Shown here piece by piece: positions 4,022-64,000 of a stretch of 64,000 bases of DNA. The stretch is from Guillardia theta CCMP2712. Lineage: Eukaryota; Protista; Cryptophyta. Every line of letters starts with the position of its first letter. Position 1 is the stretch's first letter. Where the stretch lies: positions 784,045 to 848,044 of the forward strand of contig NW_005434653.1 in assembly GCF_000315625.1 (NCBI RefSeq). Direction: 5' to 3'. The position numbers and the translations under genes are program-made. Below the pieces are notes generated by a model. That model did no database searches. It was not told the DNA's origin and worked only from the letters and a program-made list of their open reading frames with translations.

Positions 4022-4720
4022 AGTAAATGGCACCAGTCAATGCTGATCCAGCACAACGCCGCTCACGGGATGAGCGGCCACGCATGATCTTCGTGATGTT
4101 TGAACCTGTTATGCTGATGCCAGGTACAGTCAACGCAACCTTGCCTTACTTTGAAGTTGGTGGAAACATTCTTTTTATGTGCTTGTACGCGCTACAAAGA
4201 TTTCGTTTAAAATAACTTTTCATCAAATTTCCGTTGGCCAAGAGAGTCCCGAAGAAGCTCGAGTTACTGCCAGGTCACGGTCAACCGACGCGTTCGCTGC
4301 TGAGGTGAGGTCACGTCACCTCGCGGAGCTACTGGTAGTAAACTTCGTAAAGTCGCAGCTGCGGTACAATCTCGTTCGGAGCAGATACCGACGACCTCTC
4401 GGCCCCTCAGGGAACAAATGGCTGACATTTCATTTTGAAAATTCTTTTGCTCTTGCTTGGATGGATGGAACTTGAGCCCAATAGTATGTAAGTCGCATAT
4501 GCAATGATGCGCTCAGAGGGACGATTGGCTGACATTTACTTTGCAAAACCCTGGTGTTTCCTTGCTTACATGGATTTAATTCGCCTTCGTAGAACGTAAG
4601 TGTCATATCATATGATGCACTCAGCGCATAATAGTTCATGACCAGATACTGAGACGTTTTAACAACCGGGGGGTTCGTTGATTTCTAGCTCCTCGTGCGG
4701 CAAGGCGTATTATCGCGTCC

Positions 4721-5425
4721 ATGTCCAGGTCAAGCTCGACGCCTCTGCTGCTCCTGTGCCTGGCTGGGCTTCAGTTCGCCCTCGCCTACGATGTCTTCGA
4801 CGGCTACTACCCTGCCCTCTACAAGGTCGACTTCATCGGGAACGACATCCCCGTCAACGGCACCATCGGGAAGTTGTCGATCTCCATGTCTGACTGCGCG
4901 ACCTTGTGTAACGCCACCTCGGAGTGTCGGGGCTTCACCTACCAGAAGAGGGCGAGCACCGAGCTGAGCACCTGCTTCGTCAAGTCGATGATGGTGGGTG
5001 TTGGTACCGACACCAGCGCCGTCGTCAATGCCGACCCCTACTCGTACATCAGGAGGTCCGTTGCCGCCGACGTGTCCGGCTACCCGAAGCACGAAGTAGG
5101 ATACGATTATCCCGGGAATGACATTCAGTCATCCATCGCAGTCAAGGATGCAGCCGCTTGTGGACAGGAATGCAACAAAGCCACAAACTGTGCGGGGTTC
5201 GTCTACTACCCCATCCCCTTCTCGGGGCAGATCTACAATCAGCAAGCAACGGTGGGGGCAGGTACATGCGCGATCAAGACGGCGATGAAGGGGAAGTACC
5301 AGTTTCCAGCAGGATCAGAGATCCAAGCCTATCACAAGTCAGCGGCTCCCTCCACTCAGTCTCTCTCTCTCGCCCTCAGCTTCTTGACTATCTTGTTCCA
5401 CCTGTCGCTCAGGTCCAGCCCGTGA
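4721..5425 (+). CDS. PAN/apple domain surface protein, second copy
   Basis: 234 aa; differs from 1206-1910 at two residues (SSCF/STCF, AFVN/AVVN). Confidence 0.85.
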   Translation: MSRSSSTPLLLLCLAGLQFALAYDVFDGYYPALYKVDFIGNDIPVNGTIGKLSISMSDCATLCNATSECRGFTYQKRASTELSTCFVKSMMVGVGTDTSAVVNADPYSYIRRSVAADVSGYPKHEVGYDYPGNDIQSSIAVKDAAACGQECNKATNCAGFVYYPIPFSGQIYNQQATVGAGTCAIKTAMKGKYQFPAGSEIQAYHKSAAPSTQSLSLALSFLTILFHLSLRSSP

Positions 5426-5462
5426 TGCGAACAGAATGGCGGGTCAAGAATGAGCACGTCCT

Positions 5463-5597
5463 AGTAAGATGGATCATATCCTAATATCAACGAGAGTCTC
5501 AGTAAGATGGATCATATCCTAATATCAACGAGAGTCTCAGTAAGATGGATCATATCCTAATATCAACGAGAGTCCTAGTAAGATGGATCATATCCTA
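5463..5597 (+). repeat. 38-bp tandem repeat (agtaagatggatcatatcctaatatcaacgagagtctc), ~3.5 units
   Basis: Units start at 5463, 5501, 5539, 5577; the equivalent site in copy 1 is an N gap. Confidence 0.9.
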
Positions 5598-6720
5598 GCA
5601 AGAATGAACATCCTAGTAAGTGTTTCATCTAGAAATCAATGACCTCTCAAATTCATGACCCTCCCCGCCATGTTCTGCTGCCGCTGCAGATCACCAGCCA
5701 TTCCTCCGCTTCTGATTGGAATCAGACGGGGATCTGATTTCGATACATTCCTTCTCGTTCGTCAGACGTTCGGGGGGATCTATTATTTGATCGTCGTTTT
5801 ATAGATGATTACGCCCATAACTTCCTTGTGTTCTCATCACAACAATTGCACACGCCTTGATCACATTGAAGCACTGTTTGAAGGTCAAATCCAAGGAATT
5901 GCAAGAGAGTTTCTCTCTTCACCTGATCTCGTTTGGCATGTCATGGCACATATGACATTGCTGTCATCATCATTTGCATACATGTCAAGATTCAAGTGCT
6001 CTTGATCGCACGACAAGACTACTTGGGCCCGGTCCAGCTGAAGCCTGTCATTGCACCGTCTCCGGGGCCCGGGTCCAGGTCAGGCTCAGCCTCGTACTGG
6101 CACTGCAAGGTACTACGGTATTGCCAGAAGTGCTCGGCCGGCGGTGTGCCTGCGTCACTGTCATGATGACACCCGGTCGTGACGGTTTACCGGGCCCGGG
6201 GTCATAATTGGATCCAGCGGCTCAGCCTGGCAGGCTCGTCACGGCCGGCCCGGCAGTGATTGCCAGCCTGGCATCTTACAGTACCATCGAGTAGCTGATC
6301 GGACCTTGCGGCCAAGGCAAGTTGGATGTGCCTGCAAACTCACTGCGAGTCGGCTGAGCGTCCGATCGGCCCTGAGTTCCTGATCGGCATCCCGGAGCCT
6401 CGGAGTCCGGGCCCGAGTCGCCGAGTCACTTCCCCACTGGCCTGCTCGTCAAAGTTGACAAGGTGATGGATAGAATGGCCAAGCCCAACGTTCCTCTCCC
6501 TTGGTAAGGCGAGCGGGGCAGACGAAGGAGACGAGGTGAGAGAGACAGGGGAGGAGAGGAGTGAGTCTAGGAGGGAGGGAGGAGCGAGGAGGAGCAGCAA
6601 AGAAAAGCATGCGGGCTGAGCAACAAGCTGCAGGTGATGACAGGCATCTGTACAAAGCGTAAAGGCTGAGGAGGAGGAGGGGGAGGAGGAGGAGGAGTAA
6701 TTTGTGTGACCTCCTCTGCC

Positions 6721-8792
6721 ATGGCGAGCCCATTGCAAGCAAAGCTTCTGCAGGACAAGAAGGGGCGATCTTTGTTCTGGTCTGACCTGCAACATGCGGA
6801 GAATGGGAGGAGGCCAACCACTGCTGCATCTGCTCCTCGTCCCTCCTCGTCCTTCTACCCGTTGATCGACAAGGTCGAGGCGGCCGAAGCAAGGGTATCC
6901 ATGAGCATCGGGCGTTTATCGGGTCTTGCTAAGCTTGTTTGTTAGCCAAACACGGCGAACCCGGAGTTGAAGTCGAGAGCACACACGCATGTACAAGAGC
7001 ACGCGGAGGGTCCTTCTTGGGACGAGCATGACGAGAGGGTCAATGTCGGCGTTGGCTGTGCAGTCTTCTGGGATCTTGAAAGTTTCCCCATCCCCTCGAA
7101 GCAGAGGAATCTCGACTTTGCTGATGCGCTAGCAGACGTCGTGAGCAAGAAGCGGTTCGGGTCAACCGTTGAAGTCAGTCAAATCTCCGTCTACATCGAC
7201 GAGCAGAAGTCCAGCGGGGCTCCAGCAAGGCTGTTGAGCTCGAGGGTCAAGAGTACTCCGAGTCGTGCGGAAGGCTCGCAGAAAGTAGCTTGACAGCGAA
7301 TTTGGTCAAAAGTTCTGACATGCTGGACAAGGTTCCCTCCGCTGGAGGAGCGACGAGGGACGGAGGGGGCAGGCTAAGGGCGCGACCCTCCTTTGCTCCC
7401 GTGAAAAAGTTTCCTGAGAGGATGACCCTCGACGACAGGGGGGCGGGCGACCGAAGGTGCAACGTGCTGAGAATGTTGTTCTTGTGACTTTGTCATGAAC
7501 AGAATGCGGATGGTACGGGACATGCTGTTGTGGATGTATGATACCAAAGATCAGCTTGAAAGAGCAACGGTATTCTCCTGCTCACCTTCATTCATTTTCC
7601 CCCTCCACCACCATCTCCTCCTCTTCCTCCTCCTTCTCTTCCTTTGCTCTACATCTTCCTCGTCCTCTTCGTTATTTTCTCATGGTCCATGTAGGCTGTG
7701 GTGTTCACGACCGATGTCGGCGTCATCCGTTGCATAGCAGACATGAGGTGTCGTCCTTGGCGTCTTCGTCTCTGAAAGATTCTTTAAGATCTCGCGGCGC
7801 TTGTGTGGGGCTGGTCATCCACGACGTCAGCGACAGCCCTGCTGGTGTCCACCTGACTTTGACGGCAGAACCCGCCGGAAGAGAGGCACTTCGACTTCAC
7901 CATCTCCTTCAAGTATCTTCTCAACGCAGCTGAATCGACCAAGACCTCTACCCCTTGTGGAACTCCGAGGTGAAGGGTGCCAGGAGGAGGCAGGAGTTGA
8001 CCTGCACCTGCAGAGCAAGTGACAAGGTCAGGCAGGACGCTTCCTTGGGTCAGATCCTCCTGCTCGCGAGTCCGCCTGACCCGTGTGCAGGTGAAGGTGA
8101 GGGCGTCAACAGCCCAGCAGGCACGATCGATTCGTTCCCGAGAGTCAGCAGGAGGGGCTCGGAGGAGGAGGCACAGAGCGAGAGGGAGCAGAACCTTGCG
8201 AGCAGACCCGACGAAAGCATGCTGTCCTGCTCCTCTAGCCCTTCGAGTCCAGCTGAGAGGAGGGAGAAGCGGGAAGGAATAAAGTCCAGCATGAACGCTG
8301 TGCTCGGACAGAATCTGGGAGATGCCGCTATCATTCTCTGTTCCTGGTCCAAGTCGAGCAGCTTCAGTGTCGGGGAGCCTGTCTGTGTGAAACGAAGCGA
8401 TGGGAGGTCTTCTAAACTCCTCCTTCTCCTCCTCCTTCCTCCCTCCTTCTCTACTTCATGCCATTCTCACCTGTTTCTTCCTTGACCTCAAATACTCCCC
8501 CTTACTACTCTCACTACCCGATAGGTACACTCTCGGCCTAACGCTCGGCTTCGGGTCAGAGGAGCACTACAGCTCGGTACATGGCACGGTGAAGACTCCA
8601 GCTGACCTCCAGCTGATCTGATGAGTTTGGCAGAGCCTGCAGCAGGGAGAAGTTGAGGTCCTGGTGGACTATGATGGAGGGGGGCACAAGATCACCAGAA
8701 TCAACAAGATCGAGAGGGTCGGGAAGTTTCCGATGAAAGCCATGGCAAAGTTTAAGCTAGACGCCAACATCGACGACCTGAAGCGCTTCTAA
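6721..8792 (+). CDS. NYN (PIN-like, limkain-b1/MARF1 type) domain protein, multi-exon
   Basis: CAVFWDLESFPIP and RDMLLWMYD resemble NYN VFWDxENCP and DMxxWA motifs; last exon ends IDDLKRF-stop. Confidence 0.65.
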
Positions 8793-19046: not shown

Positions 19047-19322
19047 TCTTTTGAGCGTTGCGCGGGGATGAGGGCTGAGCAGCCTGGCAGGGAGTGGGCC
19101 GCCCGGCCCGGCCCCGGGCCCGGCAGCGGCGCCTGTCACCGAGTCCGATCACTGAGGCTGGTGACTCGCCGACTCGGAGTCGGGCCAGTCGCCAGCTGTG
19201 ACCTAAATTGAATACGGTTTTATGAAAAGATCCAAGTGGACAGAGTCGGTCAGGGTGCCAGATCGGATCAGATTCCGAAGTTCAACGGCCGGAGTTCCGA
19301 CTTGAGGCTTCAACTTGCCAAG

Positions 19323-21500
19323 TCAAATTGAGATAGTATGTAACACAAACCGAAGCAGGTCACTCTCTAAGAGTCGGAGAAGGCTGTTCTCTCCCAGGCG
19401 CGGATGCATACTCATCAGCACTGCAACCTCTGACTCCTGCAACGATGACTCCATCACCACATCACATCTTTCTAGGTCTCATCGCTCACCGCTGACAATC
19501 TCCTCGAAAAGTGCACGAAGGTGTGTCTTGCGTCAGGCCCGCATGAAATCTCATGAAGCCTGTAAATCTGCTCGGGCAGCTCCAACCTGGTACGACAAAC
19601 AAGAAGAGGCATCAGAAAGCCTCGGCAACGTGAACAGGACGAGACCATGTCGGTGTTGCCCAGACCGCGGCAACAGTCCCAGTACTCGGACAAATCCTGG
19701 CTTGCTTCTCGTTGCTGACTGGAGCCCTCGATTCCGACCGGCTTACTGACGAGTCGAGGGTCTTACACACAATGCAGAATGAGATGTTTGAGGATACCTC
19801 CGCTCGTGTACACCAAGCCCAACTGACCACTGCTGTTCCCCCCGAAGGCATTCACTTTTTCCCAGCCAGTGTGCCTGTCATTGATGTAAGTTCCTGCAAC
19901 CCCCCGAAGTTGATTACAATTGTCTTGCAATAACAAAGGTGTAATCGAACCCGCACGCCACAGACAGGCACTTGTAGGAAAGGAAAAATTCAACTTTTGT
20001 TGGAACCTGATATAAGTCAGAGGAACACCACTTGGGATCTTCCTTCAGAACCTTGCAGTCTACTCGTGAGGAGCGTCCAAGTTGTCCTATTCCACCCTGA
20101 CCCCAACTATACAGACTTCCGTCATGCGTAACGGCGCAAGCATGCTGAAAGCCACAAGAAATCCGTATTGCTGGGTTGGTATCTGATCAGAGATACCATC
20201 AAAAATGGCTGCATAGAAGGCAGAATCTTGCACCATTCAGATGGACTTGAATGGGATAACAGTGCGGACTGAAATCAGAGTTCAGCACGAGTACTTTCAC
20301 ACACAATCATGTATGACATGTTAGTCCCATTCCCGAGCTGCCCATGGTCATTGAAGCCCTGCGCCGAAGGAGTGAGGGAGACAGATTTGGATGAATGCAT
20401 GGACATCACCCACGAGTAAACCTTCCCTCCTAATGTTATGCAGCTCGTGAATCCAAATCCACCTTTCATTTCATCAGTCAACTCTGACGGGAGGCAAACA
20501 TCATCTGGAACCAGAAACGTCGACAACAACTGCCTCACATTCACCTGTCATCCTGTTGTTAGCAACATCCACCTCGGATTCAGGAAGATCAATTTGGAAC
20601 GGAGCGAATACCACTTTTGATGAACACCTCAGTTGGATCCGATAGCGTTCTTTGAGTTTGAGCAGGCAACCCAGCAAAGATTGTTATCACGTCTTCTGTC
20701 AATCGTGGGCTCTCTGCATGGATGTTGACGTCTTGATTTTGAATGATTTTGCCATAGTTGTCCCAACCCCAAGAAAACAACCTCCCGTGTTCTGTGATTG
20801 CTAGACTATGGCAACATCCACATGCGACCTGCAAACTCCCCTTCAGCCTCAGGAATGCTTCATGCCTCCCAACCTTTGTAACAACCGTCCATCGCAGAAT
20901 CATCACTTCCGTGGGTACATAGCAGATTCTGAACAAGGGTGGTGTCAAGACAACTAGTCACAGACTTTAGTATCACTGTACGGTTGTTCGCTCGGCAATA
21001 CACCGCACTGCCCGTCGTTGTTTCGACCCCATGCGAAGACGCTACCCCCCTCAATCAAACAAACAGTGTGATACATCCCACTCGCAATCTCCTTGACCTT
21101 GAGGCCCTGATCTCGCAAGGAGGCAGCGAGACGAGTCAGACATCTCAAACCGAACAAGCCATGATGGAGACCTGAAGTCGAGGTATCGGGACGAACTCTT
21201 TGATGGGAAAGCACTGCCCGCACCCAACTCCTAGGTGTCCCCCGAGCGCCTCCCCACAACTGAATGTTTGCATGGTGGACGAATCATGAATGACGCTGAA
21301 TCCGTTTCCACAGGAAGAGGCCGTTATGTTCGAATCCGTGTCCTCTGCATGATTTCGAAGTGTTAACCGGGTAAGCCTACCGACAATTGGCTACGTGGAA
21401 CAATTTAGACGAAACAGAAATTTCAAGAAACAAACTGCACCTGGCAGTGCCCCAACCCCAACTCCCCTGAGCTATTATCACCACATCCAAACAGAGACAT
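19323..21500 (-). CDS. RCC1-repeat (beta-propeller) protein
   Basis: MSLFGCGDNSSGELGLG, IASGMYHT..VFAWGRNNDGQCG, VACGCCHS..FSWG, CGFQHA..YSWGQG..GQLG; tail HPRLGENSLLRLLESDLLRFV. Confidence 0.9.
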
Positions 21501-41925: not shown

Positions 41926-43115
41926 TCTGTCGGAACCCGGGTGCCTACCACCCACTCACCGAAGTTAAGGTGCGGCGGCGGCCGGGCCGGGCCGGGCACA
42001 CTCCGGGCCGCGCTGTCGGCCTCGGAGTCGGAGTCACGGCGGTCCCATCCGCCGTGACTCGTGAGTCCCGGGCCGGACAATGTGCAGTGCAAATGAGTCG
42101 GCACCCGGTGCATGACTCTGTGACGGTGGCACATCATTGTCGGAGGCCCTGCACCCGCCGCGGGACGGTTGCCACGGTACCGTCATGACTTTACTCAACT
42201 TTAAGTTACTACTTCGTACCGTAGTACGGTACGGTCCGATCGGATCGGCTTGGGCCCGGCCGCAAGTTCAACGGTCGCCGGATCAGCGGACTGCCGGGTG
42301 ACGTCGCAGTATGATGCCAGGCGGAGGCTTTTGAAGTTCATGAGTCACATTGAGCCACTGAGCTCGTGAAAGTTATCAGTCACAGTGGCAAGTTAAAAAA
42401 TCAGTTCCGAAGGTTGACATCGAAACTGCCCACGATCGGGTTCGAACTTTGGCGACTAAGCAACAATGGAGATTTGAACTGATCAAAAAGGTTGGGGTGA
42501 TATACACCTTGACCAGCCGCCGAGTTAACAGACAGGTAGAAATAGAGTATATATACCCAAAAACAAAATGATGATGGTCACCTTCTGAAGGGCTTCTAAA
42601 AGCTGACGCGTGAGCTGTGACCGCTGAGAAGAATGACGAAGGAGCTGAAGCGGGAGATTAAACCGCACAGGTGCGAGGAAAGAAAGTTGTATCAATTGTA
42701 TCAATGCGAACATACGGATAGAGGCAATGTCACAAACAATATAGAGATTCGCAAACATTTCAGAAAAAAATTAGAGGGATCAAAAGAGAGGCCAAAAAAT
42801 TTCCGTTCAAATTTTATACTGATGGACTGCTTTTCAGGTGTAACCCGCATCTAGATGCAGTCTTAGCTGGTTTTTTTGCAGGTGATAGCCTCTGATATGT
42901 AAAAATCACCTTATTCTGTCCTCATTCTCTTTCATAGGACCGTCACATATTGCGGTGTGCTCCCTTCCTCTGTCTATTTTCTTTTGATCTATCGAACCTT
43001 CAGACCCCAATCAAAGTTTTCTTTCAGTGTTTGCGAACTGAACCCGGCAATGAACCACCAGTACCTCAGACGCCCAAGAAGTAATTGGTTGCGAGAAGCA
43101 CATCTTTCTCTCAGA

Positions 43116-43992: not shown

Positions 43993-45376
43993 TTTTTCTC
44001 TTTTATCTCATCAGTGCAAGAGCAAGATTTGCAAAAATAATATGAAGTGACGTACAATAGGCCAAATACATTCACAAATTTTTCAACTAGGCGTAGAGCC
44101 CAGGATATCTTACACTGGCCTGTCCGAATGATGCACCATAACCCAAGCCTGTGAGGAGAATCTTCATGCCATAGTTTCATGGTCAATCAGTTCACCTCTT
44201 TGTCCTGCCATCGCACTCAAAGAACAATCAGGATCATCGTGGGAGGATGTTGGATTCAAATTTGGGTCCCAACCCGGAAGAGGATTCTGAAAATTCAGTT
44301 AAAGTGAAGCACAAAGGAATTTAATCCAGGCTCACGCATATTCCATCAGAGTCCGATAACACTTGTGTTTTCTGAACAAGAATTCGTCATTGGAGATGAA
44401 GGTAACCTCGAACAGACAAAACAATGAACTTTCTGCTTTGTTAATGATGCCAACAAGCACAAGCATGGATATTCCTTGAAAGAATTCTTGAGTCTAAGCC
44501 CTGGAACTGTGTTCTCCTTCTGATCGCTAAGAGCGCCTGCTGGCTCACCTGCTGCAGATCTTGCCATTGTCTCAACAGTGCGAACATGACGCCTCTGAAA
44601 GCGAGTTCAACAATTCTTTTTATCAATATCAGTTTGTACCGATAAATTCAATAACTACATTCAATATAGATTCTTGAGTGAACATCTGTACCATATGTTA
44701 CAAAATATAGTTTTATTTCTAATTATCAATTTATAATGAATGTTCCCGAAATAAGCTGCCGTACGGCTGACCCTGACTGACGGATCATAATTCCGAAGCC
44801 TACCGGGTCCAGTCAGGGTGATAAATGACCTTCGCACCTAGCGAGGCCATTGCCAGTACCAGTGACGAACGTTATTGAATTATTTTTAACTTAACTTTGA
44901 GTAAACGATTGAATTGACTGGACTCTTGGGGTGCCCGAGGCGAGCTTGTCAGTCCTCCCGAGTCCGAGGCCGCCCGGAGCCCGGCCCGCCGCCGGAAGGC
45001 AGTTTCACATTGAAGTTGAACGCCGCCGGGCCGCTCCGACGAAGTTGCCAGTGCGGATCGTATGCCAGCCGTTTTGTTAGGCTCGGGGCTTGTCACTGCC
45101 TGGGCCGCCCGGCAAAGAACCGGCCCGGCCGCCCCCCCGCGGCCCGCCGCTCAAGCGGCTCTGACCGTGGCCGTCGTGGTCACCGTACTAGAATTGCATG
45201 AATTTTCAACAGTAACGAAAACAATACCAAGAAAGAAAAAACTCCAGTAAACAATTCAACTAACCAAACGGGAGGATAAGATCAACATCATGATTTCAAT
45301 TGAGCATGTAATCGAGGCTCATAACCGACGGAATACAAGTTTGTTGATCATTTGTTAGACTTGTACTAGTCCAAAG

Positions 45377-47583
45377 TCACGCAGACATCACATCGACCTT
45401 AGTTGTAACAAGACAGTTTTTGCTCAAGACCGAGTTTAATGCACACAAAACCAGAATTGACTGGCAGTGAGCCTCGAGCACAGTGAGAGATAGCCTCGGA
45501 CGGGTGCCCGTGTATGCCGCGCCTAGGATGTGAACTTCGGAAACCCATGCATCCAGACATGAGAGGACCTTAGCAAGACGGCTAGGAAAGCCCCCTCTTC
45601 GAGTCTGAGTCCGAAGCACTGAATACCAGTTCATCATCATCGGATTGCAGTGCCCTTGGCAATGATAGTTTTCGCTCAGGCCGTCATTTCCGACGGCCCA
45701 TGTTACATCGTTCAACGGTTACAAGTAAAAGTTCACGCCGGGTTCGGAATCATTGGAGTACCGTAGTGTTGAAGTTCCCAGTAACCTTCTCTCCACAGCC
45801 TGTGACACAGTGGCAATGACACCCGAAGTAGACAGTGATAGCACCGACTGCAAGTTTCTGTAGCAGTGGTAATAGATATCACGAATGGCCGCGCAGGAAA
45901 GATATCAGGATACAGAGAACAAACGGAGGTGATAAGAGATTGGTATAGATGGTCAAGCTTGTTTACTTCAAGCAATCCGATCTCACAGAGACCATACACC
46001 TCGTTCTCCTTTCCCTGTCCTGCCAATGCGTGCGGCCCTTCTTCCTCTTCCTCGGTCCCTAAAATAGGGACTGCTTGGTCCTAGGAACTACGACTACCGG
46101 TACTCTACGCTTCTTATCTGCGATATGATTCTTCGACCGGTCCGAGGCCTGGTTCCGTACCTTGAGGGTTCCCTAAGAAAGAGTCATAGGCTTGACATGA
46201 CGAGGTCTTCGATTCTCATCCAACGCTCTCTGTGAAGTTGATGTAGCTGCTCCCTTGACCTTGACAGGTCCTGTGTCTCCGTAGGAGCATGCTTGGAGGT
46301 GGTCTCGTGCATTCCTTGTAAGTCCTCCGCTAAGATGATCATGATAGTACTGTCTTCTTTGATCAGACCCCTTGTTCTCCCATGTCCATGACTTCAGGGG
46401 TGATGCTTCCAATCTCCCTTTGAGCGTAGCCATATCCTGCCACCGTGACGGTGTCATCTGCTGTCCTGTCGTGGACTGATATAAGCTGACTCGCTTATCT
46501 CCTGCTGCCATCCACGATTCCTAAGTTCTTGCTGTCTTCTTCATGATTCTCCTACGTCGTCCTTATTGTAGCTGTTGCTGTCCTCTCCAGGGACGCATTC
46601 CGAGGCTCTAAGCATCTGTGCACTTGAGCCACGTCGATTACTTGGCATTGTCTGAGGTGAAGCTTCCTCCTATCAGGTGCTTCAACACCCTCCCTTGGCT
46701 CTTGTGTGCCGATGCCAGCATTGTTACTTTGCCGCGCCTCCATTGACGGTGTCAGGCTTGTCAAATTTGACTATGCCTTTTCAAACGACCTGCTGCGGTT
46801 GACTCTTCGCGCGTCGTCGCCGCCGTATTCCCTCCCTTGCCTAGAGTAGGCGGGAGCTGTTGCTTGACAGCAAGTTGGGATCATGCTTGGTCTCTGGTCG
46901 TCTGCCTTGAAGCTGTATGGTCTTGCTCATCAGACCCGATATTCCTCTTTCCATAAGCGATCAGCCTCTTGACTTGACTTTCGCAGTAGGGCTGTGCATG
47001 GTACTGAAAGGTTCTCCTCAGCGCCCATCAGCACTGATGTGCCTGGCGACTTGGGACCTCCTTCATTTCTGCAGCATCATTTCATAACTTCGATCGAAGG
47101 TATGTCTTCATCGTCTGCTTCTTCGTCTTGCGAAGGCTTGGCGCTTCAAGCTGCCTTTCATTTCTTCAACTCTACTGTAGAGTTGGTTTGTGTCATCATA
47201 TCGCCATCGTGAGATCGTGGCATGCAATGAGGCTTCAATGGGACGTCTCCCTTCCTCGGTCTTCACAACCTTCAAGCTTTCATCTGCCGTGCTCTAGGCT
47301 TGCCGCTTCAATCATCGCGGTGCTTGACCAGTGGAATCATGAGGTAATTCCTCTCCTCACTGTTGGCCACGTACAGGCTTTGAGGTTGGATTGAAAACAG
47401 CTCTTGTCACTTTTGACATTCAGAGCGACTTTGATCAGGACTGATCCCTCCATCATCGAGATTTTCTCGCTGTCATGTCACCCCTCAGCTTCTTTGCCAG
47501 CTATCTGGTGGCCTCGTCGTCATCTTGTGCGACTCCTGGCTCTGCTTGGGGGATCCCTGTGACTCGTCCATGTCACATGACAT
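45377..47583 (-). pseudogene. Decayed intronless coding-like sequence (possible mobile element relic)
   Basis: String of short same-strand ORFs broken by stops and frameshifts; no typical introns; no domain recognised. Confidence 0.3.
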
Positions 47584-48518
47584 AGGGATGATGCGAGGCT
47601 CGATGATCGGACTTACGGTAGGCCGCTCCGGGCGGCCGCCCACCGCCCGGTCCGGCGCCGGGCCCGGGGTCCGACTGTCCCGGAGTCCGACGGTCACTCA
47701 GTGATCGGACTAGTACGGTACCACTGAGACTCTCTTTTTTACTCAAAGACTGAGACGGTGACGGTTGCAAAGTTGCGACTAGTGACCCTCAATTCATCGA
47801 GCACCGGCGGTACCAACCCGACTGAGTCACTAGGGTCACACTAGGGTAGGGTAGGGTAGGGTCACGTGGGGTGGGTACGGAACTCGGAAGGGTAGCCACG
47901 GGGTATTGTTGGGTGGGGTACAGGAGCGCCCCTCAGCTATCTCCGGCCACCCACCCCTGTGACATTCCGGAAATGCAATTCAATGATGGGGAATCACTAT
48001 TCCCGGTCCCTCTTTCCACCACCCTACCTGGAACCCAAAATTGAAGAATTGTTGCAGCTAATTTTCCTACAAAGTAATCACTCACCATACAATGCTGTAT
48101 TGTTTTTAAAATAAGATCACCCACCCCACATTACTTTGAACCCCCCTCCCCCGTTTAACATTAACCCGGCGTCGACCACCTACCCACCCATCTCTTGCGG
48201 TTGAATTCCGCCGTCAGTGGAAATGCCGGTGAGCAAGCGAAAGAACATGCCACACTCAACGAGCACTTGACAGACCTTGACCAACCACAACCCTTGAATC
48301 ATACCCCCTTGCTGCTCCTGCTCCTGCTCAGAAGTTTCTTCTGATCCTCCCGCTCATGCTCATCTTCCTCAGTCAACCTTCCTTACCCGAGAAATCACAG
48401 AGCAGTCAAAACGTTGCGTGTGAGATGCAACAAATGGAGTGCAGGTAGCAGAAGTAGCCGATTTAGGGCACGGGTTGAAACCAGCAAAAAATTGAGCGCA
48501 ATGACCAACATATGACAT

Positions 48519-52560: not shown

Positions 52561-53781
52561 CTGCCCTTGTTCACCATAATAATTGTGAAGTTTCCGGGGA
52601 CGGGAGGTTAGTGTTTGAGTACGATTCAACTACTTGAAATTGCTTTTGTTTTTGTTACAGATTTGTACCATAGTCTGAAACATTTGGATATTTGGATGTA
52701 TATTCGCAAATTTTCAATTAAAATATTGAAATTTTTAACCCCTTTGCCACAGTTTGATTGGACCCTTGAATGTTGTGGAGGTCGGCGTCACAGAACAACC
52801 CCTACCCCAAGAGCCTCTACCCCTATCCGTCGTCTTCAGCCTTCAGGCCATGTTTGAGGGCCGGTACTTGTAGTACCCTACCTCCTCCTTCATCATCGAC
52901 TACCCCACAGAGGGCATATAATCCACTTGTAAAGAAATGTTTGCCAAGCACCGGTAGTTTAGGCCGGGATATGTCAGCCTCTACCGAGTTTGATTTTTAC
53001 CGTCGCTAGGCCTCCCCACCTCCCGGGTTTGCCTCAGGCTACCCGGCCCCCTCTTGGACTCTCACAGGGTACGGTCCTCGACACACACCCCGGCCCGTAA
53101 AGAACTACCCCTACCGTGCCTCCCAATTTGATCGTGGCCTACCCTGCGGCTGCCGAATCCCTTCAAGGCTTCCGAGTGACACTCTGTACGGTAGAGATGA
53201 TCTGTACGGTACGGTACATCGTCACTACACCCCCCGGGCCGTTTGCCAGTTGTCGGACTATCATCCTGACGGCGACTTAACTTTGACGGTAAAGGATCAT
53301 CCGATCAGTAAGCCGGTGGCCCGGGACTCCCGGGAGGGGGGCCGGCCCGGAAGGCCCGGGATCGGACGGGAGTCGGAGGCGGGGCCCGGAGGAGGCCGCC
53401 GCGGGCGGCGCCGCCCGGCGGCCCGGCGGGCTCAGGCTTGCCGCAAGCCTTGGCAGTGCCAAGTTGGGCCCGGGGAGACTGGGCCCGGGGGAGAGCCTCG
53501 GACGCGAGTCAGTGAGGCGAGTAAGGAAGGGGCCCGCCGGGGGGCCCTTCCGAGTCCGAGTCGGCTTGCCACGGTTGATTCATGCGGCCGCAGCCGGACT
53601 CCGTGACATCCGTGGCGCGCGCGGCAGCCTGACGTTTCTGCAGTGCCGCGCTGAGTGCCGTGCGTGACTCTCACCGGCGGCGTCCGACCGTCAGTGTGGC
53701 CGCCGCGGGGGGCTGCCAGGGGGACTACCGTCACAGTGACTAGCCCCCGCTCACTGAAGACGGGAGTCACGCCTAGTACAC

Positions 53782-53842
53782 GGGTTTAGGGCCCGGTTTA
53801 GGGTTTAGGGACGGTTTAGGGTTTAGGCCCGCCGGGTTTAGG
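53782..53842 (+). repeat. Interstitial telomeric repeats (TTTAGGG), interrupted
   Basis: Six TTTAGG(G) units with short inserts. Confidence 0.9.
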
Positions 53843-53865
53843 AGCCGCGGCCCTTACGGTAAGAG

Positions 53866-55812
53866 CATGCTGCCCTGCGGCGCGTAGGGAGAGCGCAAGG
53901 GGACTGGAGGAAGCTGCGAAATGATGAGAGCGTTCGCAACCTGCTGTATCGGAGATCATGCCAATACACGCAGGGCGAGCGCTCTGGAGGCCACGTCGAG
54001 GAGGCCGCCAACCTCGTCGAGAGGGTGAAGAGCTTCGCGAAGCGGTATCCTGGTAGCCTAGTAGGACAGCTCATGCTTGCAGAGCTGAGGGTGGATCATG
54101 GATGCACTCCCGACGCTATCGCTGAAGCCATCCGCTCGACCGATGATGTCGGCAGGCGAGACGCGACCTGTTTGAAGACTCTCTGAGCGAATGGAGCTCA
54201 GAGTCGAGAGCATGGTTTAACAACAGATGGAGGAGGCCAAGAAGCAGAATGTCGAGGCATACATCGGCACTGAACTGACTTGCACCGAGGGGACCTCCTT
54301 CATCTCCAAGAAAAGTTGAAATCGAAGCTTATGGAGCTGGGTCTCATGGTAGACTCAGTCGATGGAGTCGACAAGGCCATCATGTGGAAAGCACCTTACA
54401 GACCTGAGGCTAGTAGCACGAGCAGACGACATCTCAGTCACCGTCTCCTTCCTTAGGAATGAAGAAGCCATGGCGCTATGGGGCCGAAGGCAGGCCCGGA
54501 GAATACAGCATAGACGGCAGACGGTCGTTCAAGCTTCGAGCCAAGCGAGGACCTTGGGGCACTGCAAGGCCCGGGAGCCGCCGCCGCCGGAGCCTTGCCG
54601 AGCTATCGCAGCTCTTAGCTCTTGGAGGAATGTCGACGGCCGAGATCGCTCAGACTCTCTATCGATTTCAGCTGCAGAGGTACAACCGCTTGCTGGCATT
54701 CTCGTGCAGGGTCCTGGGCAGCCTCCGAGGTCGCAAGGGGCCGAGCCCGAAGACGTATGTGGCTATTGGGGCAAGCACGGGAGCTCTCGTTCAGAGAGAG
54801 CGAGGCGATGGAGGGGGTGCATCTCACTCTCATCAGCGACGACGCCAAGCTCAGAGAGACGTGAGAGATCATGCGGGGCGCAGCAGCTTTAGAGTCACGT
54901 GACAGATCAAGTCGAGGTCAAGCATGAGCACTGAGGCCGCTTCTCGAGGAAGGAGATGGAAGCCGCGGCTGTGCGGAGGAGGTAACACAAACCTCAAGCT
55001 GGTCAGCGTCGAGGTCGAGGAAGATTCACGGTGACACGCTGAGCTGGGATGGGAGCCTGATAGCTCTCTTCCTGGCGACTTGGAAGGGGTCCCCACTGTC
55101 AGCTCTCAGGAGGAAGAGGAGAGCGAGGAGCAAGCTCAGGACCCCCAAGGGCATCAGCAAGGCGCTGGATGGCTGGAGCTCAGCGACATCGACAGGATCA
55201 CCATGGAAGCAGCGTCGCCGTCAGGGCCAGTCGATCAACAGGTCTTGGTCGACCTCTCGTCGATGCTCTTGGAGACACTGATCAGAGGAGGAGCTGCTAG
55301 CTGGCAAGCTCGGATCTCCCTGGAGCTAGACAAGAGTGTTGGCAAGCTGGCAACGTGGAGTTCATGACGCTCGGAGCTTGGGCAGCCACGCCGTTGAAAG
55401 AAAAGCTCAGAGCGTACCTCGGGGAGATGCAATGGACACGGGTGCAAGGGAACAAGAAGGTCATGCAGGCAGCGAGGAGGGGCAGCGCCTTGGAGGCTGA
55501 GAGCGATGACATCGAGAGTCGATCTGTAAGCCTCACGGGCAAGGTCGACAAGCAAGACCGACTGCGGCTGACGATGAGAGATGAAGTCGAAATGGAGGCT
55601 GAGGAGGGCGAGGGCGTGGAGGAGGAGGCTGGCACAGGCCTCTCTCGCGCTTGAAGCTCGAGGCAAGTCTTAAAGGTGGACAAGAGGCAGACTCTGCGGC
55701 GGAAATGTGGGCCCCAAGGCCCGGGGGAAGGAGGAAGAAATAAACTTGAAAGCAGGTGGGCACGGGGCAAGCAACGAAGGTAAGCCTCAGGCTTGAAGGG
55801 CAGGTAAGCCGG
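53866..55812 (+). mobile_element. Decayed copy of repeated intronless element X (ORF1/gag-like?)
   Basis: Collinear with 61704-64000; many indels; telomeric repeats on both sides. Confidence 0.6.
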
Positions 55813-55863
55813 CCGCGGTGGGCCCGGAGCCTGGGGGAGGGGGAGCCTTTAGAGTTTGACTGA

Positions 55864-55879
55864 GGGTTTAGGGTTTAGG
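55864..55879 (+). repeat. Interstitial telomeric repeats gggtttagggtttagg
   Basis: Direct. Confidence 0.8.
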
Positions 55880-56778
55880 AGGCGCCGTTATTTTCGGCAG
55901 GCGCCAGGCGCCGTTATTTTCGGCAGCACTGCGGCATGGCTCCTCGCCAGCACGGTGTAGGGGAACTTCGGAAGCCGCCAGGGCGGCCGGCGCCAGTTGA
56001 TCGGATCCGAGTGACTCTGTGACTCGGATCATCCGATGCCACCGGATGTTCAAGTTTACGCCGTTGCGTGACGCGCCCGGCATCCGCGGCCCGCCGGGCC
56101 GCCGGCCTAAGGCTGCAGTGCTATGTACGGTAACCTAGTAACTCTGACTCACTGGCCAGTGCCAGCTTCAGTACCGTCTACGTGACAAGAACTTCGGCTC
56201 TCGCTCGGAAGCCCGGCGCAATTTCGGACTGGAAGGAGTGACGCACAGAGTCCCTGGCAGACGAGTTGGAAGGACTCCGAGAAGGTTGAGACATATGGCA
56301 CCGCCTCAGCAGGCCCTGAGGCAACGAGTTCGGACTTTCTTCATCCTGATCTGAACTGTCGGCGGTAGGCTACTGTCTGTACCGTACGTTTACCGTTGAA
56401 AACGGTTGTAGTGAAATTCAACGAACTGTCGGTGAAATTTGTACCATGAAAAATACCGTACAGGACACACCTGGTACTCATTTGTACCACGTCTGGAAAA
56501 CACTCCGAGTCATGGTTATTTTCAGTGTACTTTCCTGAAGTGTGTCCCTGGTACCAATATTTGTATTGAAAATTTAACCAATATCTTTAAAACTAATAGT
56601 GCTATATGCTGTGCACTCCAACAAGGTCTGTCTGATTTGCTAGAAGGCTGTTGGTATTCGTGCTATAGCGAGGGAGGGAGGGGAGGGACAGGGGGAGGGA
56701 CCGAAAGAGGCAGGAAGGGAGGAGGGAGGGGGGCAGAGATATATGAAGAAAGGAAAGGAGATAGGGTGATAGGGAGGG

Positions 56779-58052: not shown

Positions 58053-60258
58053 TCAGGTGGATTTCCTCACAGTGTCGGAGACAAGACCTGTAACTTCGGG
58101 CATACTAGCAGAGCTCATTTCAGAAATCTTCCTTTCTCTCAACCATAATGCATCTTCTTTTGATAGGAACATGGTGTACTGAGTGAAGTTGCACAGCTGC
58201 TGAAAATTCTCCTCGCTTGGCTCTTTTCCATCATATGTGAAAACCTGTCCTCGTGTCCAGTTCGGCAGTCCCTTATACGCTGAAGGTAGGACAAACACAA
58301 AACATATCCTAGAAAACCGGTTCTTGGCTCGCAGAGCTTGCAGGATCTTACATAATGGCCAATACTTGATCGGATGACTATCTGCCCGTGTAATCTGAAA
58401 AATGTAGAGAACTTCGCTTTGTTTTAATGACAACGCATCCAAGAAAGGAAAATTCTTTGACTTGGGCTTGCAATATGCATTCAAATTGATCGCCCACGTT
58501 TCCATCTCGTCTTGCTTTGTCGCAAATTCAATATACGATTGCGATGTTTCCAACTTGAGCTCTTCGCACATGTATCCATTACCATTAGTCGACTGTAGAC
58601 TATGCAACGTGAAGTTTCCTCCTTTCTTCAGCAGCTGATGTGCAACGTATTCAAAAATTTGACCTGCTGCAACCTCAAATGGACTTTCAGCGGCCGAAAA
58701 AGCCTGCTCAACAAGCGAATGCCAATCGTTTATGACAATCCTGTCAAATATCTTCGTTTCAGCCTTCGTTGAACATATGCGAGGGGTTATGGTCTTGAAG
58801 TCAGAATTAGGGATCAGGTGAATTAGTTTCGATGGCATTCCCAAGTCTTGATTTATTGCCACATGCATCCTCTCCTGTAGTGATGACAAAGAACCTGTTG
58901 TCCTGATTATCTGATCAAGTGTATCTGAGGGTTTCATCACGAGATATCTTGGTACGTTTCCCCAATCCTCAATGGTCCGTGCAGCTTCTTGCTCATCAAT
59001 GCGCCCCCTATGCATCTTGATGAAGATTGACATCTCCTCGTCCGACCATACTGGTAGAAAATATCTCTGCGACACACGTTTGTTCAAAAGATCCTTAATC
59101 GGCTGAACCCTCGGTGATGAAATTATAATTGTTTTTGCGAAATTAGTGATGGCATAGTCTCCTTTCCCATGGTACAAGTCACAGATATACCACCCAGAGA
59201 AATGTGCAAGAAGGACAACAAAAGGTTTGTCATGGAGGATCTCATTCCATTCTCCTCCATCAGAGTACCAATACTGAGGCCCTACCTGGTAGACGATTTT
59301 CTCCTTAGACCGGAGAAGCTCCATGAGTAAGTAGTACGCAAAGCACGACTTTCCTATCCCTGGAGTACCTGTGAGAATAAATGGCTTACAACTCTTTCGT
59401 GGTCCCAGTGTCTTCAACATCTCTGGATCCACCTTGAAATGTTCTGCAATTACCCGCTTCATCTCAAGATAACACTCTCGTATGAAGAGATGGTTTCCAA
59501 AATCCTCATCGCCTCCCAAGAATGTCGAAAGAGGGATAATCTCAAGAGCTGAGAAGGTCTTGCCTGAGCGTGCAATGTTCCAGAGATCGTTCAAGAAAAG
59601 TAGGATTTCGCTACCTATCAGTCCTATCAGTACATGTAATTCATCACAATTCTGCTTCACCTTCAGGTTTGGATAAATGGTCTGCAAGTTTTTCATGACG
59701 TATATCCCTTTGTTGTTTGATCTCCAATATTTTGAGAAGCTGTATCTCCTTCTCTCGAAGCTGCTGCTTCTCCATCTCTCGAAGCTGCTTCTCCTGATAC
59801 CAGTATTGCTCATTCATATTTGAGATGTTCCTCTCTATGATGTTCCTATCTGCCACTTCTATCTTGCTATTAACCACATCAATATCCTCCTTTACCCTTG
59901 CAATCTCCGCATTTACCCCTGCAATCTCAATTACCGTCTCATTTACTCTGGTCATCGTTGCATGGAGCTCTGCTCCCAATGAATAGCCCCCTAGCCCCTC
60001 TCTTTCCGCAGTTCGTGGTCTTTTCGATCTCTCTGTCTTGTCTCTTGCGTCACGAGAGCTGTAAACAGCCAACTGCTCGTCTGCATACATCTCGTCTTGT
60101 TCCTCGAGAGAACCATGGCCAGTTAGCTCCATGCGCATTCCATTCACATTCCCCATACTTTTCTCTCTGAGCTCTTTCGCCCCAGGGGAACCACCATCGC
60201 TCACGTTCCATGGTGCACCACTTCCTCCTCGTAATGTCAAGCAAGAGCTCTGGCGCAC
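58053..60258 (-). CDS. Crinkler/RHS (CR)-type protein: helical header + P-loop NTPase + PD-(D/E)XK restriction-endonuclease domain
   Basis: ILTGTPGIGKS, WYICD, IIISSP, RYFLPVWSDEE, WGNVPR; GQIFEYVAH, PKSKNFPFLDAL, FQIT..HPI; 46-nt GT-AG intron (59660-59615) joins the two ORFs in frame (SKPE-G-SEILL); true start uncertain. Confidence 0.85.
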
Positions 60259-61047
60259 GACATTCTTCTTGCCATCAATAAAACCTTGACAGCCAACAGT
60301 AGCAGCTATTCCCTACAATCACATCAAAGCTCGTCATATCAAGGATACAACAACGCAGGTGCTTCTCACCTCTGTAATCACAATGCACATCAGACCCAAA
60401 CAAAGAAAAAGACACAGAGTCTTGACTTGTCTCATTTCTCCCTTGGATCTGTGTGTTCTGACGCGTTCACCCTGATACCCATATCCAATAGGCAGTCCTT
60501 CTTCTGCATGTTGCCTTGCTCATGACAGCAAGACATGAGACAGAAACCAGCGAATGGGTGAGAGACGGATAGCAGGCATCAGACAAGGATAAAGAAGGGA
60601 AAAGAGTGTGTGTTGAGGGGAAGGGGGGAGGGNNNNNNNNNNNNNNNNNNNNNNNNNNNNNNNNNNNNNNNNNNNNNNNNNNNNNNNNNNNNNNNNNNNN
60701 NNNNNNNNNNNNNNNNNNNNNNNNNNNNNNNNGAGGGCGAGGGAGAGAAAGGGAGAGCCAGGGGGAGAAAGGGACGAAGGACCGACAGAATCACTGACAG
60801 GCAGGCTGGCAGCAGGCAAAGAGCGAGAGAGGAGGAAGAGGGAGGGAGAGGGTGGGTGCAAGCAAGGAAATGGGGTGAGGGGAGGAAGAGAGACAGACAG
60901 ACAGAAGGAGGGAGAGTGACCGAGTAAGAGACAGCCAGTGAGTGAAAGAGAGAGATGCTCCCTCACTTTCTCCCTCCCTCCGCTCTCCCCTTTCTCCCTC
61001 CCTCCCTCGCTAAATCCATCGCCCCCTTCCTCGCACACACACTCCCT
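59991..61047 (-). repeat. Right arm of inverted repeat (contains CR gene 5' end and an N gap)
   Basis: Reverse complement of 56779-57742. Confidence 0.95.
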
Positions 61048-61703
61048 TGTCAGAGGCAGCCGGGCCTTGTCAGAGGCAGCCGGGCCTTGTCAGAGGCAGC
61101 CGGGCCTTGTCAGAGGCAGAGCCGGGCCTTGTCAGAGGCAGCCGGGCCTTGTCAGAGGCAGCCGGGCCTTGTCAGAGGCAGCCGGGCCTTGTCAGAGGCA
61201 GCCGGGCCTTGTCAGAGGCAGCCGGGCCTTGTCAGAGGCAGCCGGGCCTTGTCAGAGGCAGCCGGGCCTTGTCAGAGGCAGCCGGGCCTTGTCAGAGGCA
61301 GCCGGGCCTTGTCAGAGGCAGCCGGGCCTTGTCAGAGGCAGCCGGGCCTTGTCAGAGGCACAGCCGGGCCTTGTCAGAGGCAGCCGGGCCTTGTCAGAGG
61401 CAGCCGGGCCTTGTCAGAGGCAGCCGGGCCTTGTCAGAGGCAGCCGGGCCTTGTCAGAGGCAGCCGGGCCTTGTCAGAGGCAGCCGGGCCTTGTCAGAGG
61501 CACAGCCGGGCCTTGTCAGAGGCAGCCGGGCCTTGTCAGAGGCACAGCCGGGCCTTGTCAGAGGCACAGCCGGGCCTTGTCAGAGGCACAGCCGGGCCTT
61601 GTCAGAGGCACAGCCGGGCCTTGTCAGAGGCACAGCCGGGCCTTGTCAGAGGCCGCACAGCCGGCCGCCTTGTCAGAGGCACAGCCGGGCCTTGTCAGAG
61701 GCA
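61047..61703 (+). repeat. 20/22-bp tandem array (cttgtcagaggc[ac]agccgggc), ~32 units
   Basis: Direct; no unique spacers. Confidence 0.97.
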
Positions 61704-64000
61704 CATGCTGCCCTGCGGCGCGTAGGGAGAGCGGCAAGGGGACCGGTGGAAGCTGCGAGCAAGAGGTTTGTATCGTTCAAACAGCTACCTAAGCATGGTA
61801 CTACAGTATGATGAGAGCGTTCGCAACCTGCTGTATCGGAGATCATGCCAATACACGCAGGGTGAGCGCTCTGGAGGCCACGTCGAAGAGGCCGCCGACC
61901 TCGTCGAGAGAGTGAAGCCTTCACCAAGCGTTATCCGAATAGTCGGACAGCTCATGCTTGCAGAGCTGAGGGGGGATGCACTCCCGACGCTATCGCTGAA
62001 GCCATCCGCTCGACATGTCGGCAGGCGAGACGCGACCTGTTTGAAGACTCTCTGAGTGAATGGAGCTCAGAGTCGAGAGCATGGTTTATTCAACAGATGG
62101 AGGAGGCCAAGAAGCAGAATGTCGAGACATACATCGGCACCGAAGGCACCGAGGGGACCTCCTTCATCTCCATGACTCTCCTGGGCATCTCCTCGATGTT
62201 TGTTCGACAAGAAGACAAATTGAAAACAAAGCTCATGGAGCTGGGGCTCATGGTAGACTCAGTCGATGGAGGCGACAAGGCCATCATGTGGAAAGCACCT
62301 TACAGACCTGAGATAGCACGAGCAGACGACATCTCAGTCACCGTCTCCTTCCTTCGGAATGAAGCAGCCATGGAGCTATGGGAAGGCAGGAAAGAATACA
62401 CTATAGACGGCAGAGCGTTTAAAGCAACGGAAGTCAGCATAGCACACGGCTCTCGGAGGAATGTCGACGGCCGAGATCGCTCAGATTTATCGATTTCAGC
62501 TGGTCTCGCAATCTCTTGCAGCCGCAGAGGTACAACCGCTTGCTGGCATGCTCGTGCAGGGTGCTGGGCAGAGAGGTCGCAAGGGGCCGAGCCCGAAGAC
62601 GTATGTCGCTGTTGGGGCAAGTACCGGAACTCTCCAGCAAAAAGAGCTAGAGTGGGTGCTGAGCTCGCCTTCGACGGCAAGTTGCGAGCAGACCTTGGCC
62701 TCGTTCAGAGAGAGCGAGGCGATGGAGGGGGTGCACCTGACCCTCATCAGCGACGACGCCAAGCTCAGAGAGACGTTTGCAGTCGAGCTCACAGCCGACA
62801 CCTTCGTTCCTAGGGGAAAGATCGCTAAGCAAAGGAGGGCACTTCGCGAGAGAGATCATGCGGGGCGCAGCAGCTTCAGAGTGCAGATCAAGTCGAGGTC
62901 AAGCATGAGCACAGGCCGCTTCTCGAGGAAGGAGATGGAAGCACTGTGCGGAGGAGGTAACACATCGATCACGAGAGTCAAGCGAGCCATGTTGGAATTA
63001 GCAAGAAGGATAGGCGTGACGCCGGTCAGCGTCGAGGTCGAGGAGGATCGTGACACGCTCAGCTGGGATGGGAGCCTGATAGCTCTCTCCCTGGCGACCA
63101 AGGCAGAGGCTCGACGCTTGATGGACGACATGCACTTCTACTTGGAAGGGATTCTGGAAGTTAAGCTGGAAGCTATGGGTTTTAAGCTTAACCCTCAGCA
63201 TGAGGAGGAGAGGAGCCCGAGCAGCGAGGAGCAAGCCCAAGAGTCCCAAGGGCAGCAGCAAGGCGCTGGATGGCTGGAGCTCAGCGACATCGACAGGATC
63301 ACCATGGAAGCAGCGTCGCCGTCAGGGCCAGTCGATCATGGCAACAGGTCTTGGTCGACCTCTCGTCGATGCTCTTGGAGACATCAGAGGAGGAGCTGCT
63401 AGCTGGCAAGCCGATCTCCCTGGAGCTAGACAAGAGTNNNNNNNNNNNNNNNNNNNNNNNNNNNNNNNNNNNNNNNNNNNNNNNNNNNNNNNNNNNNNNN
63501 NNNNNNNNNNNNNNNNNNNNNNNNNNNNNNNNNNNNNNNNNNNNNNNNNNNNNNNNNNNNNNNNNNNNNNNNNNNNNNNNNNNNNNNNNNNNNNNNNNNN
63601 NNNNNNNNNNNNNNNNNNNNNNNNNNNNNNNNNNNNNNNNNNNNNNNNNNNNNNNNNNNNNNNNNNNNNNNNNNNNNNNNNNNNNNNNNCGATCTGTAAG
63701 CCTCTTGTATCTTGCGATCAGTAAATTTGCTGAGCACCATGGGTTGAGCTGCACGGGCAAGGTCGACAAGCAAGACCGACTGCGGCTGATGATGAGGGAG
63801 GAAGTCGACATGGAGGCTGAGGAGGGCGAGGGCGTGGAGGAGGAGGCCGGTGCAGGCCTCTCGCGCGCTTGAGGCTCGAGTCAAGTCTTAGAGGTGGACA
63901 AGAGGCGGAGCGGAGCTGTGGGCCCCAAGGGGGGAAGGAGGAAGAAATAAAGCAGGTGGTCATGGGGCAAGCAACGAAGGTAAGGGCGGGTAAGCCGGTC
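61704..64000 (+). mobile_element. Element X, better preserved copy with frameshifted long ORF
   Basis: ORFs 61768-62055, 62097-62813, 62461-63402 and 63270-63872 form one broken frame; runs off the window. Confidence 0.6.

Follow-up and report, generated by a model that had tools for sequence, protein, structure and literature searches.

Transib transposons duplicate 5 bp of their target, and the hairpins left by RAG are flush. Opening of flank hairpins by host enzymes is established for hAT, Transib, RAG, and MULE systems (PMC5499845, in its accessible sections), and an opened covalent hairpin leaving a one-base center is established for hAT elements (accessible parts of PMC5873905 and PMC2921059), whose footprints center on the complement of the flank base according to the available text of PMC5873905. 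The insertions described here, from a 64,000-nt stretch of Guillardia theta DNA (the window), resemble hAT footprints (Ac/Ds, Hermes) in their inverted flank copies, single central base, short arms, microhomology joins, and accompanying deletions (same two papers, same parts). Unlike in the hAT footprints described there, the center is C or G whatever the flank instead of complementing the flank base, and the duplication measures 3 nt rather than 8 bp.

A varied-sequence 3-bp duplication and palindromic additions are shared with CACTA/En-Spm elements, whose ends begin with C (PMC3193017, in what is available of section 18), a terminal base that we infer here as well. Plant CACTA palindromes are, however, flush and have no center base, whereas palindromes with 0-nt loops occur here at chance level. 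In Supplementary Data 4 of PMC6379663, 28 of 32 Arabidopsis CACTA clones carry footprints, 11 of which read by eye as center-less palindromes around a triplet inferred by us, and a C or G center is found, again by eye, in 0 of the 28. Two carnation CACTA footprints appear in the accessible part of PMC3859356, one flush and the other ambiguous, readable with a C center.

With RAG/Transib and MULE systems the scars would share a flank hairpin that host enzymes open (PMC5499845, available sections). According to the same sections, the Muta1 hairpin of the MULE group equals its two flank strands (43+43 nt), to which no base is added, and the duplications are long, unlike what is seen here, and the scars show neither the flush hairpin nor the 5-bp duplication of Transib/RAG. 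As in Tc1/mariner-Stowaway footprints, where the cut falls inside the element, element-end bases would stay behind; but there the duplication is 2 bp (TA) and flank palindromes are missing (PMC4561436, as far as accessible), whereas here the triplets vary, palindromes form, and one base would be kept on a flank closed as a hairpin. PIF/Harbinger elements are described in the same text with a TWA triplet and precise excision, whereas none of 17 triplets here is TWA. The scars work like hAT and RAG footprints but belong to none of the families tested. Our literature search, which covered subscription and older footprint work thinly, returned no report of this signature in G. theta or of such a geometry; the accessible part of PMC12220804 covers only polinton-like viruses. 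The insertions probably mark the excision of a cut-and-paste DNA transposon that would duplicate 3 bp of its target and begin with 5′-C at both ends.

The insertions were read by comparing two copies of one repeat family, the first of which lies between short repeats:

53866..55812, plus strand: copy A, dead, the ORF1 region of a multi-copy non-LTR-type family, aligned to copy B
61704..64000, plus strand: copy B, nearly intact reference of the same family
53782..53841, plus strand: TTTAGGG-type repeats 5′ of copy A, interrupted by C/G-centered inserts
55864..55878, plus strand: TTTAGGG-type repeats 3′ of copy A, oriented as the 5′ repeats

Copy B has defects of its own, namely a frameshift near 61918, a deletion near 62448, a 5-nt insert at 63337, and an N gap at 63438-63689. 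The protein of its ORF at 62443-63399 has 29 matches in two subfamilies, of which 25 are labeled G. theta CCMP2712, with identities of 97-99% to proteins so labeled. Copies A and B are likely the ORF1 of a telomere-repeat non-LTR retrotransposon. MoTeR elements are telomere-repeat non-LTR retrotransposons with a restriction-like endonuclease, and the family resembles them in its telomere-type repeat site and in the (AAT)n tail followed by GGGTTTA in a relative, and may do so in a putative RRM-like ORF1 and a linked candidate ORF2 end; it differs in that no reverse transcriptase domain was seen in the linked protein P0030 or the family proteins examined and that ORF2 is absent from copy A. The TTTAGGG repeats are called telomere-type by their form, and PMC3622300 does not mention Guillardia. 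The RRM-like assignment concerns residues 385-490 of the family protein (best Z 8.8, rmsd 3.2, 79 aligned) in a model whose mean pLDDT is only 40, and the best Foldseek E value for this low-confidence model is 0.009; Pfam gave no match for the family ORF1 protein, and sequence searches of ESM Atlas, Pfam, and PDB returned nothing for the element proteins. Gene model P0008, which fuses a family ORF to another ORF, is the sole link to P0030, and P0030 carries a zinc knuckle, a zf-RVT match below the cut-off (E 0.0018), and, by eye, a PD-(D/E)xK-like motif at its end.

Several further observations concern this family. A metagenome scan returned a single relative, L001, which ends in (AAT)n and then GGGTTTA; its positions 1-1300 represent the 3′ part of a sister-subfamily relative, with tandem duplication on a 78-nt scale, the (AAT)n tail, and GGGTTTA repeats. 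At 55880-56330, beyond the telomere-type repeats 3′ of copy A, lies a sister-subfamily element that is far more eroded (tblastn E 7e-6). Family genes also occur in adjacent pairs, judged by gene numbers. At 55801-55870, contigs from two runs are missing 68 nt bounded by GT..AG and show letters specific to copy A; if the runs are, as we guess, RNA, a type under which no listed run is on record, this hints at transcription and splicing of copy A. A 20-bp satellite of about 32 copies (61045-61703) adjoins the 5′ end of copy B, and its last units contain small C-centered-looking inserts.

Alignment of copy A to copy B gives 38 length-changing blocks. Copy A gains 2-14 nt net in 19 of them (modal size net +4, in 7 of 19) and loses 22-73 nt net in 10, one loss being partly a subfamily difference; mismatches number 75 in 1600 aligned columns. 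Scars occur in copy A at about one per 100 nt and include the following:

54054..54064, plus strand: motif TAG-C-CTA-G-TAG, net +5 relative to copy B
54091..54099, plus strand: scar GAT-C-AT-G-GAT, for which a duplication of at least 3 nt is needed
54409..54413, plus strand: one-sided scar, arm 4, G center where copy B has A
54495..54499, plus strand: scar GG-C-CC-GG
54722..54726, plus strand: one-sided scar, arm 4, C center
54890..54902, plus strand: compound scar with C and G centers
54964..54968, plus strand: scar GC-C-GC-G-GC
55022..55030, plus strand: one-sided scar, arm 4, G center
55277..55280, plus strand: 4-nt insert with C center, the next base in copy B being T
55689..55698, plus strand: scar with C center, arm 5, then G, parsed best without duplication
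55742..55748, plus strand: two-ended scar AAA-C-TT-G-AAA, without a free base only at a 3-nt duplication
55782..55795, plus strand: nested scar with AAG in two copies, a C following the left one and a G preceding the right one, and an inner C-centered palindrome (arm 6)

All seven inserts cited in the first-pass annotation are present in this alignment, none more than about 3 nt from the place given. Contigs of other public runs span 54833-55062, 55230-55378 (X1), and 55643-55848 (X3) with zero differences, so the inserts are not assembly errors; among the contigs listed, five of the seven cited inserts are covered exactly, those at 54093 and 54491 not being among those listed. Among the 12 indel rows listed, out of 107, deeper family contigs lack the insert letters at no fewer than 8 of 19 sites, and family proteins, by eye, read through the insert sites without extra letters. 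Given the exact contig matches and the letters missing from the deeper family contigs, the inserts are real and derived, and the worry that they might be ancestral to the family is answered by those contigs together with the protein read-through. Reads on copy B showed no private inserts from other copies, single-copy variants falling under the 1% floor.

In 18 of the 19 net insertions, an inverted copy of the flank surrounds a single C or G, with arms of at least 2 nt. Random inserts matched in length and position, generated under two compositions (5000 each), gave means of 3.5 and 3.8 for such palindromes, and 0 of 5000 reached 18 under either composition, which bears out the claim that the inserts are palindromic beyond composition-matched random sequence. 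C/G-centered palindromes with arms of at least 3 nt numbered 7, against 0.7-0.8 in the null. A/T-centered palindromes in the inserts were not enriched (4 vs 3.3-3.7), and loops of 0 nt (8 vs 6.8-7.5), 2 nt (3 vs 3.5-4.0), and 3 nt (3 vs 3.4-3.6) were all at chance.

End joining mediated by Pol theta leaves microhomology at deletions and looped templated inserts. Repair of repeated breaks by a Pol theta-type or generic template-switch process would account for inserts that are flank-templated and accompanied by 22-73-nt deletions. Yet there is no excess of 0-, 2-, or 3-nt loops, the center base is fixed, and microhomology at the six clean deletions amounts to only 0, 1, 1, 1, 2, and 2 nt, making such repair very improbable; snap-back synthesis, which the annotation had proposed beside Pol theta, fares no better, longer loops not being enriched. 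Its further proposal, that hairpins were opened in the manner of P-nucleotides or transposon footprints, gains support from the strict 1-nt center.

The center base itself is informative where its side can be told, as in 24 of 35 insert centers. A C follows the ancestral left flank in 11 of 13 such centers and a G precedes the ancestral right flank in 9 of 11, and in 12 of the 24 the neighboring base in copy B is A or T, yet the center is C or G. With half of the assigned centers standing beside an ancestral A/T, the center base is therefore an added one, and the strand that ends 3′ at the break is the one carrying the C.

Copy A inserts were also parsed at duplication lengths of 0-8 nt, counting the bases left free (unexplained). 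Free bases were fewest at a 3-nt duplication (18 vs 22-29 at other lengths), where 12 of 19 inserts had none; there was no gain at 4-8 nt, and neither the parses, with their minimum at 3, nor the full motif described below, with no instance at 4 nt, gave any sign of the 8-bp duplication of hAT. The nesting that had been claimed for some inserts is seen at 55782..55795, which parses as a scar with a second C-centered palindrome within it. When the ancestor was corrected towards copy A, 13 of 19 inserts parsed without free bases at zero duplication too; both centers without duplication then gave the best parse in 7 of 19 (2 of 19 with copy B as ancestor), and both centers with a 3-nt duplication in 1 of 19 (corrected ancestor). 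The zero-duplication parses may represent nesting, over-fitting or chance, or a second process. This class of copy A inserts, with its two centers, is what speaks for an account in which the same transposon visits take place and either a host polymerase puts the central C template-free on blunt or filled ends, after which the hairpin closes, or hot spots are shared by two families, of which one duplicates 3 bp and the other nothing; counts of the 2-nt motif somewhat above simulation point the same way. Corrected ancestors, however, favor zero-overlap parses by construction, and we found no precedent for template-free addition of exactly one C followed by hairpin ligation. We judge this account unlikely, and prefer excision by one transposon whose own ends would supply the C.

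Palindromes with 1-nt centers are far denser in intergenic patches of 300-600 nt elsewhere in the window, with z scores against dinucleotide shuffles of +6 to +11, and no excess is found in coding controls or in copy B. The patches were chosen by eye on odd-palindrome density, which makes their overall enrichment circular; center base, order, and triplet length were not among the selection criteria.

53230..53865, unstranded: scar-saturated patch left of copy A, z +11
55813..56400, unstranded: scar-saturated patch right of copy A, z +7.7, with an eroded sister-subfamily ORF remnant at about 56090-56330
41960..42450, unstranded: intergenic scar patch upstream of a methionine sulfoxide reductase gene, z +10
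44740-45200 and 45400-45850, unstranded: two intergenic scar patches, z +6.8 and +7.6
47600..47900, unstranded: intergenic scar patch, z +6.1
19070..19340, unstranded: visible intergenic scar patch
6020..6450, unstranded: scar patch in a segmental duplication, whose paralogue at 2510-2875 aligns only in part

Within the patches, the share of bases that serve as palindrome centers is 21% for C, 19% for G, and 7% for A/T, compared with 6% for all four bases elsewhere. The blocks flanking the 6020-6450 patch are 90-98% identical to the paralogue, and gene conversion of these flanks could exaggerate the contrast between the patch and its neighbors. The mark had been tied to the dead element; unrelated intergenic patches are in fact marked more densely, and copy A only records the process. 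The first-pass annotation was thus right about the inverted copies and missed the fixed C/G center, the 3-nt length of the duplication, and the greater density outside the element.

The region at 46000-47600 shows a mild excess of 1-nt-center palindromes (z +3.8, arms of 2), has no long ORF and no family match, and is perhaps another scarred dead element. Positions 1-8310 form a tandem segmental duplication with a PAN-domain gene in two copies and a neighboring ORF in three. Upstream of the PAN-domain gene, duplicates that are 99% identical differ by an exact 52-nt inversion (741-792 vs 4257-4308) and a 55-nt indel; the inversion may represent an aberrant excision. The comparison of 739-793 with 4200-4308 was considered as an event-saturated site and rejected, there being only the one 52-nt inversion and the 55-nt indel; these stretches (173 of the 4169 patch bases) are part of the patch set and contain 0 of the 17 full motifs.

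The full form of the scar, A-C-rc(A)-G-A, was sought as A-x-rc(A)-y-A. With a 3-nt A there are 39 such motifs in the 4169 patch bases, comprising 17 C..G, 10 C..C, 7 G..C, 2 G..G, and 3 others. The 17 C..G motifs, built on triplets of varied sequence, compare with 2 in the 56673 other bases and with a mean of 0.2 (maximum 3) in 200 shuffles. With a 4-nt A no C..G motif occurs in the patches, and motifs with a 2-nt A are abundant and show no order bias (22/32/15/26), so that where a direct duplication of 2-4 nt had been proposed, the counts of the full form single out 3 nt. An overlap of 3 nt is found in 24 of 124 C..G pairs, compared with 9 of 135 G..C pairs (p 0.003). Two full scars outside copy A can be polarized, one against the paralogue and one against the sister protein:

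6110..6120, plus strand: full 8-nt scar GTA-C-TAC-G-GTA, with a single GTA at the paralogous site 2701-2703
56311..56321, plus strand: full 8-nt scar AGG-C-CCT-G-AGG, which breaks the frame of the sister-subfamily remnant

The empty paralogous site would make the scar at 6110 the derived state, loss between the repeats being formally possible. A toy simulation that assumed a 3-bp duplication, with the share of fully annealed events set to 10% (two settings were run, this one second), gave a 3-nt motif spectrum of 18/9/9/9, with 2-nt motifs somewhat fewer than observed. One-ended models gave 3/6/4/4 and never more than 10 in 20 runs, and neither these nor the 2-bp and 4-bp models matched the observed spectrum.

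The one-ended models correspond to an origin without any transposon, in which Rev1 adds a C where a fork has stalled or at an abasic site, Pol zeta switches strands, and a one-sided inverted copy results, its hairpin-prone products attracting more of the same. Extra C at hairpin bases and Pol zeta template switching are both documented in the accessible part of PMC3874155; many scars are indeed one-sided, with about one ancestral base lost, and the scheme would explain self-reinforcing patches. One-ended events cannot, however, set C and G on opposite strands around a duplicated triplet, and their simulations yield 0-10 C..G 3-nt motifs with G..C above C..G, against 17 and 7 observed. Rev1 moreover probably needs a template G (same source, same part), whereas of the 11 left-flank C centers just 2 had C as the following base in the ancestor. 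This origin appears distinctly unlikely.

Another account is that the footprints are of the ordinary hAT or plant CACTA type and that a preference for certain targets produces the C/G centers. Odd palindromes are the textbook hAT footprint, and a C center is one reading of one of the two carnation CACTA footprints. But a target preference would have to accommodate the bases flanking the 17 full motifs, which are not fixed (by eye, C before 4 and G after 6), and the 12 of 24 centers with an A/T ancestral neighbor; the lack of gain at 4-8-nt duplications and the 0 of 28 Arabidopsis CACTA footprint clones with a C or G center (by eye) add to the case against it, and we hold it to be hardly credible. 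The earlier analogy with hAT accordingly survives in the odd palindrome and not in its details, since the center does not complement the flank base. Two other targets, one of 5 bp (C-NNN-G) cut in the hAT geometry and one of 2 bp losing a base on each side, were each rejected by eye on the motif list and the insert palindromes.

A one-base loop is impossible by fold-back priming and is expected of an opened covalent hairpin; a pair of opposed hairpins with a duplicated triplet of arbitrary sequence between them is what the donor site of a cut-and-paste element would present. In the transposon reading, the transposase would place its nick in the non-transferred strand, one base within the element, and the freed 3′-OH would attack the other strand at the element end, leaving each flank as a covalent hairpin with the element's first C as its presumed tip. 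A constant C at both tips would most simply be the first base of both element ends. A host nuclease would then open the hairpins off-center, and end joining would seal the break. If both hairpins were opened with 3′ overhangs, annealing via the duplicated triplet would give A-C-rc(A)-G-A (+8), and trimming of one end would account for the one-sided scars, which are commoner (modal net +4). If the opposite strand were opened instead, C and G would be swapped, producing the G..C and C..C classes, while repeat visits to the same patch would build nested chains and deletions. The dead retroelement would be a bystander between two hot patches. That such a transposon uses an undescribed mode of cleavage, nicking one base inside its 5′ ends, much as mariners cut internally, and yet leaving hairpin-sealed flanks like hAT and RAG, so that every scar bears its terminal C, and that its revisits largely rewrite intergenic patches of a few hundred bases with the flanks almost unchanged, we propose tentatively, as a possibility just short of even.

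Neither the element nor a transposase was found in the window: a scan for terminal inverted repeats (TIRs) with target duplications gave no credible candidate, end-to-end comparisons around the patches revealed no element, and shared k-mers among the patches disclosed no recurring element remnant, the recurring 11-mers being the scar motifs themselves. CACTACA occurs at 53223 and its inverse ends at 56413, with no matching triplets or extended TIR within the window. Separately, a 21-nt AT-rich inverted pair (52708-52728 and 56555-56575, 90%) brackets both patches and copy A, with no further homology. Between 56779 and 61047, a 586-aa P-loop NTPase ORF (58053-59813, minus strand), with a weak nSTAND3 match and presumably Crinkler-like, lies between inverted arms of about 1 kb that are 97-99% identical, at which neither TIR-like ends nor a target duplication was seen.

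Excision footprints made through flank hairpins are a process already known in general. If the transposon reading is true, transposition through flank hairpins would have a fourth register for its first nick, one base into the element, beside registers that include the flush (RAG-type) position and the position one base outside (hAT). The scars would then predict both the ends and the duplication length of an element that should be findable in the public genome. Cycles of insertion and excision would be a dominant local mutator of intergenic DNA, which bears on promoter turnover and on the alignment and dating of scarred regions, where a fifth of the C and G bases in patches are palindrome centers.
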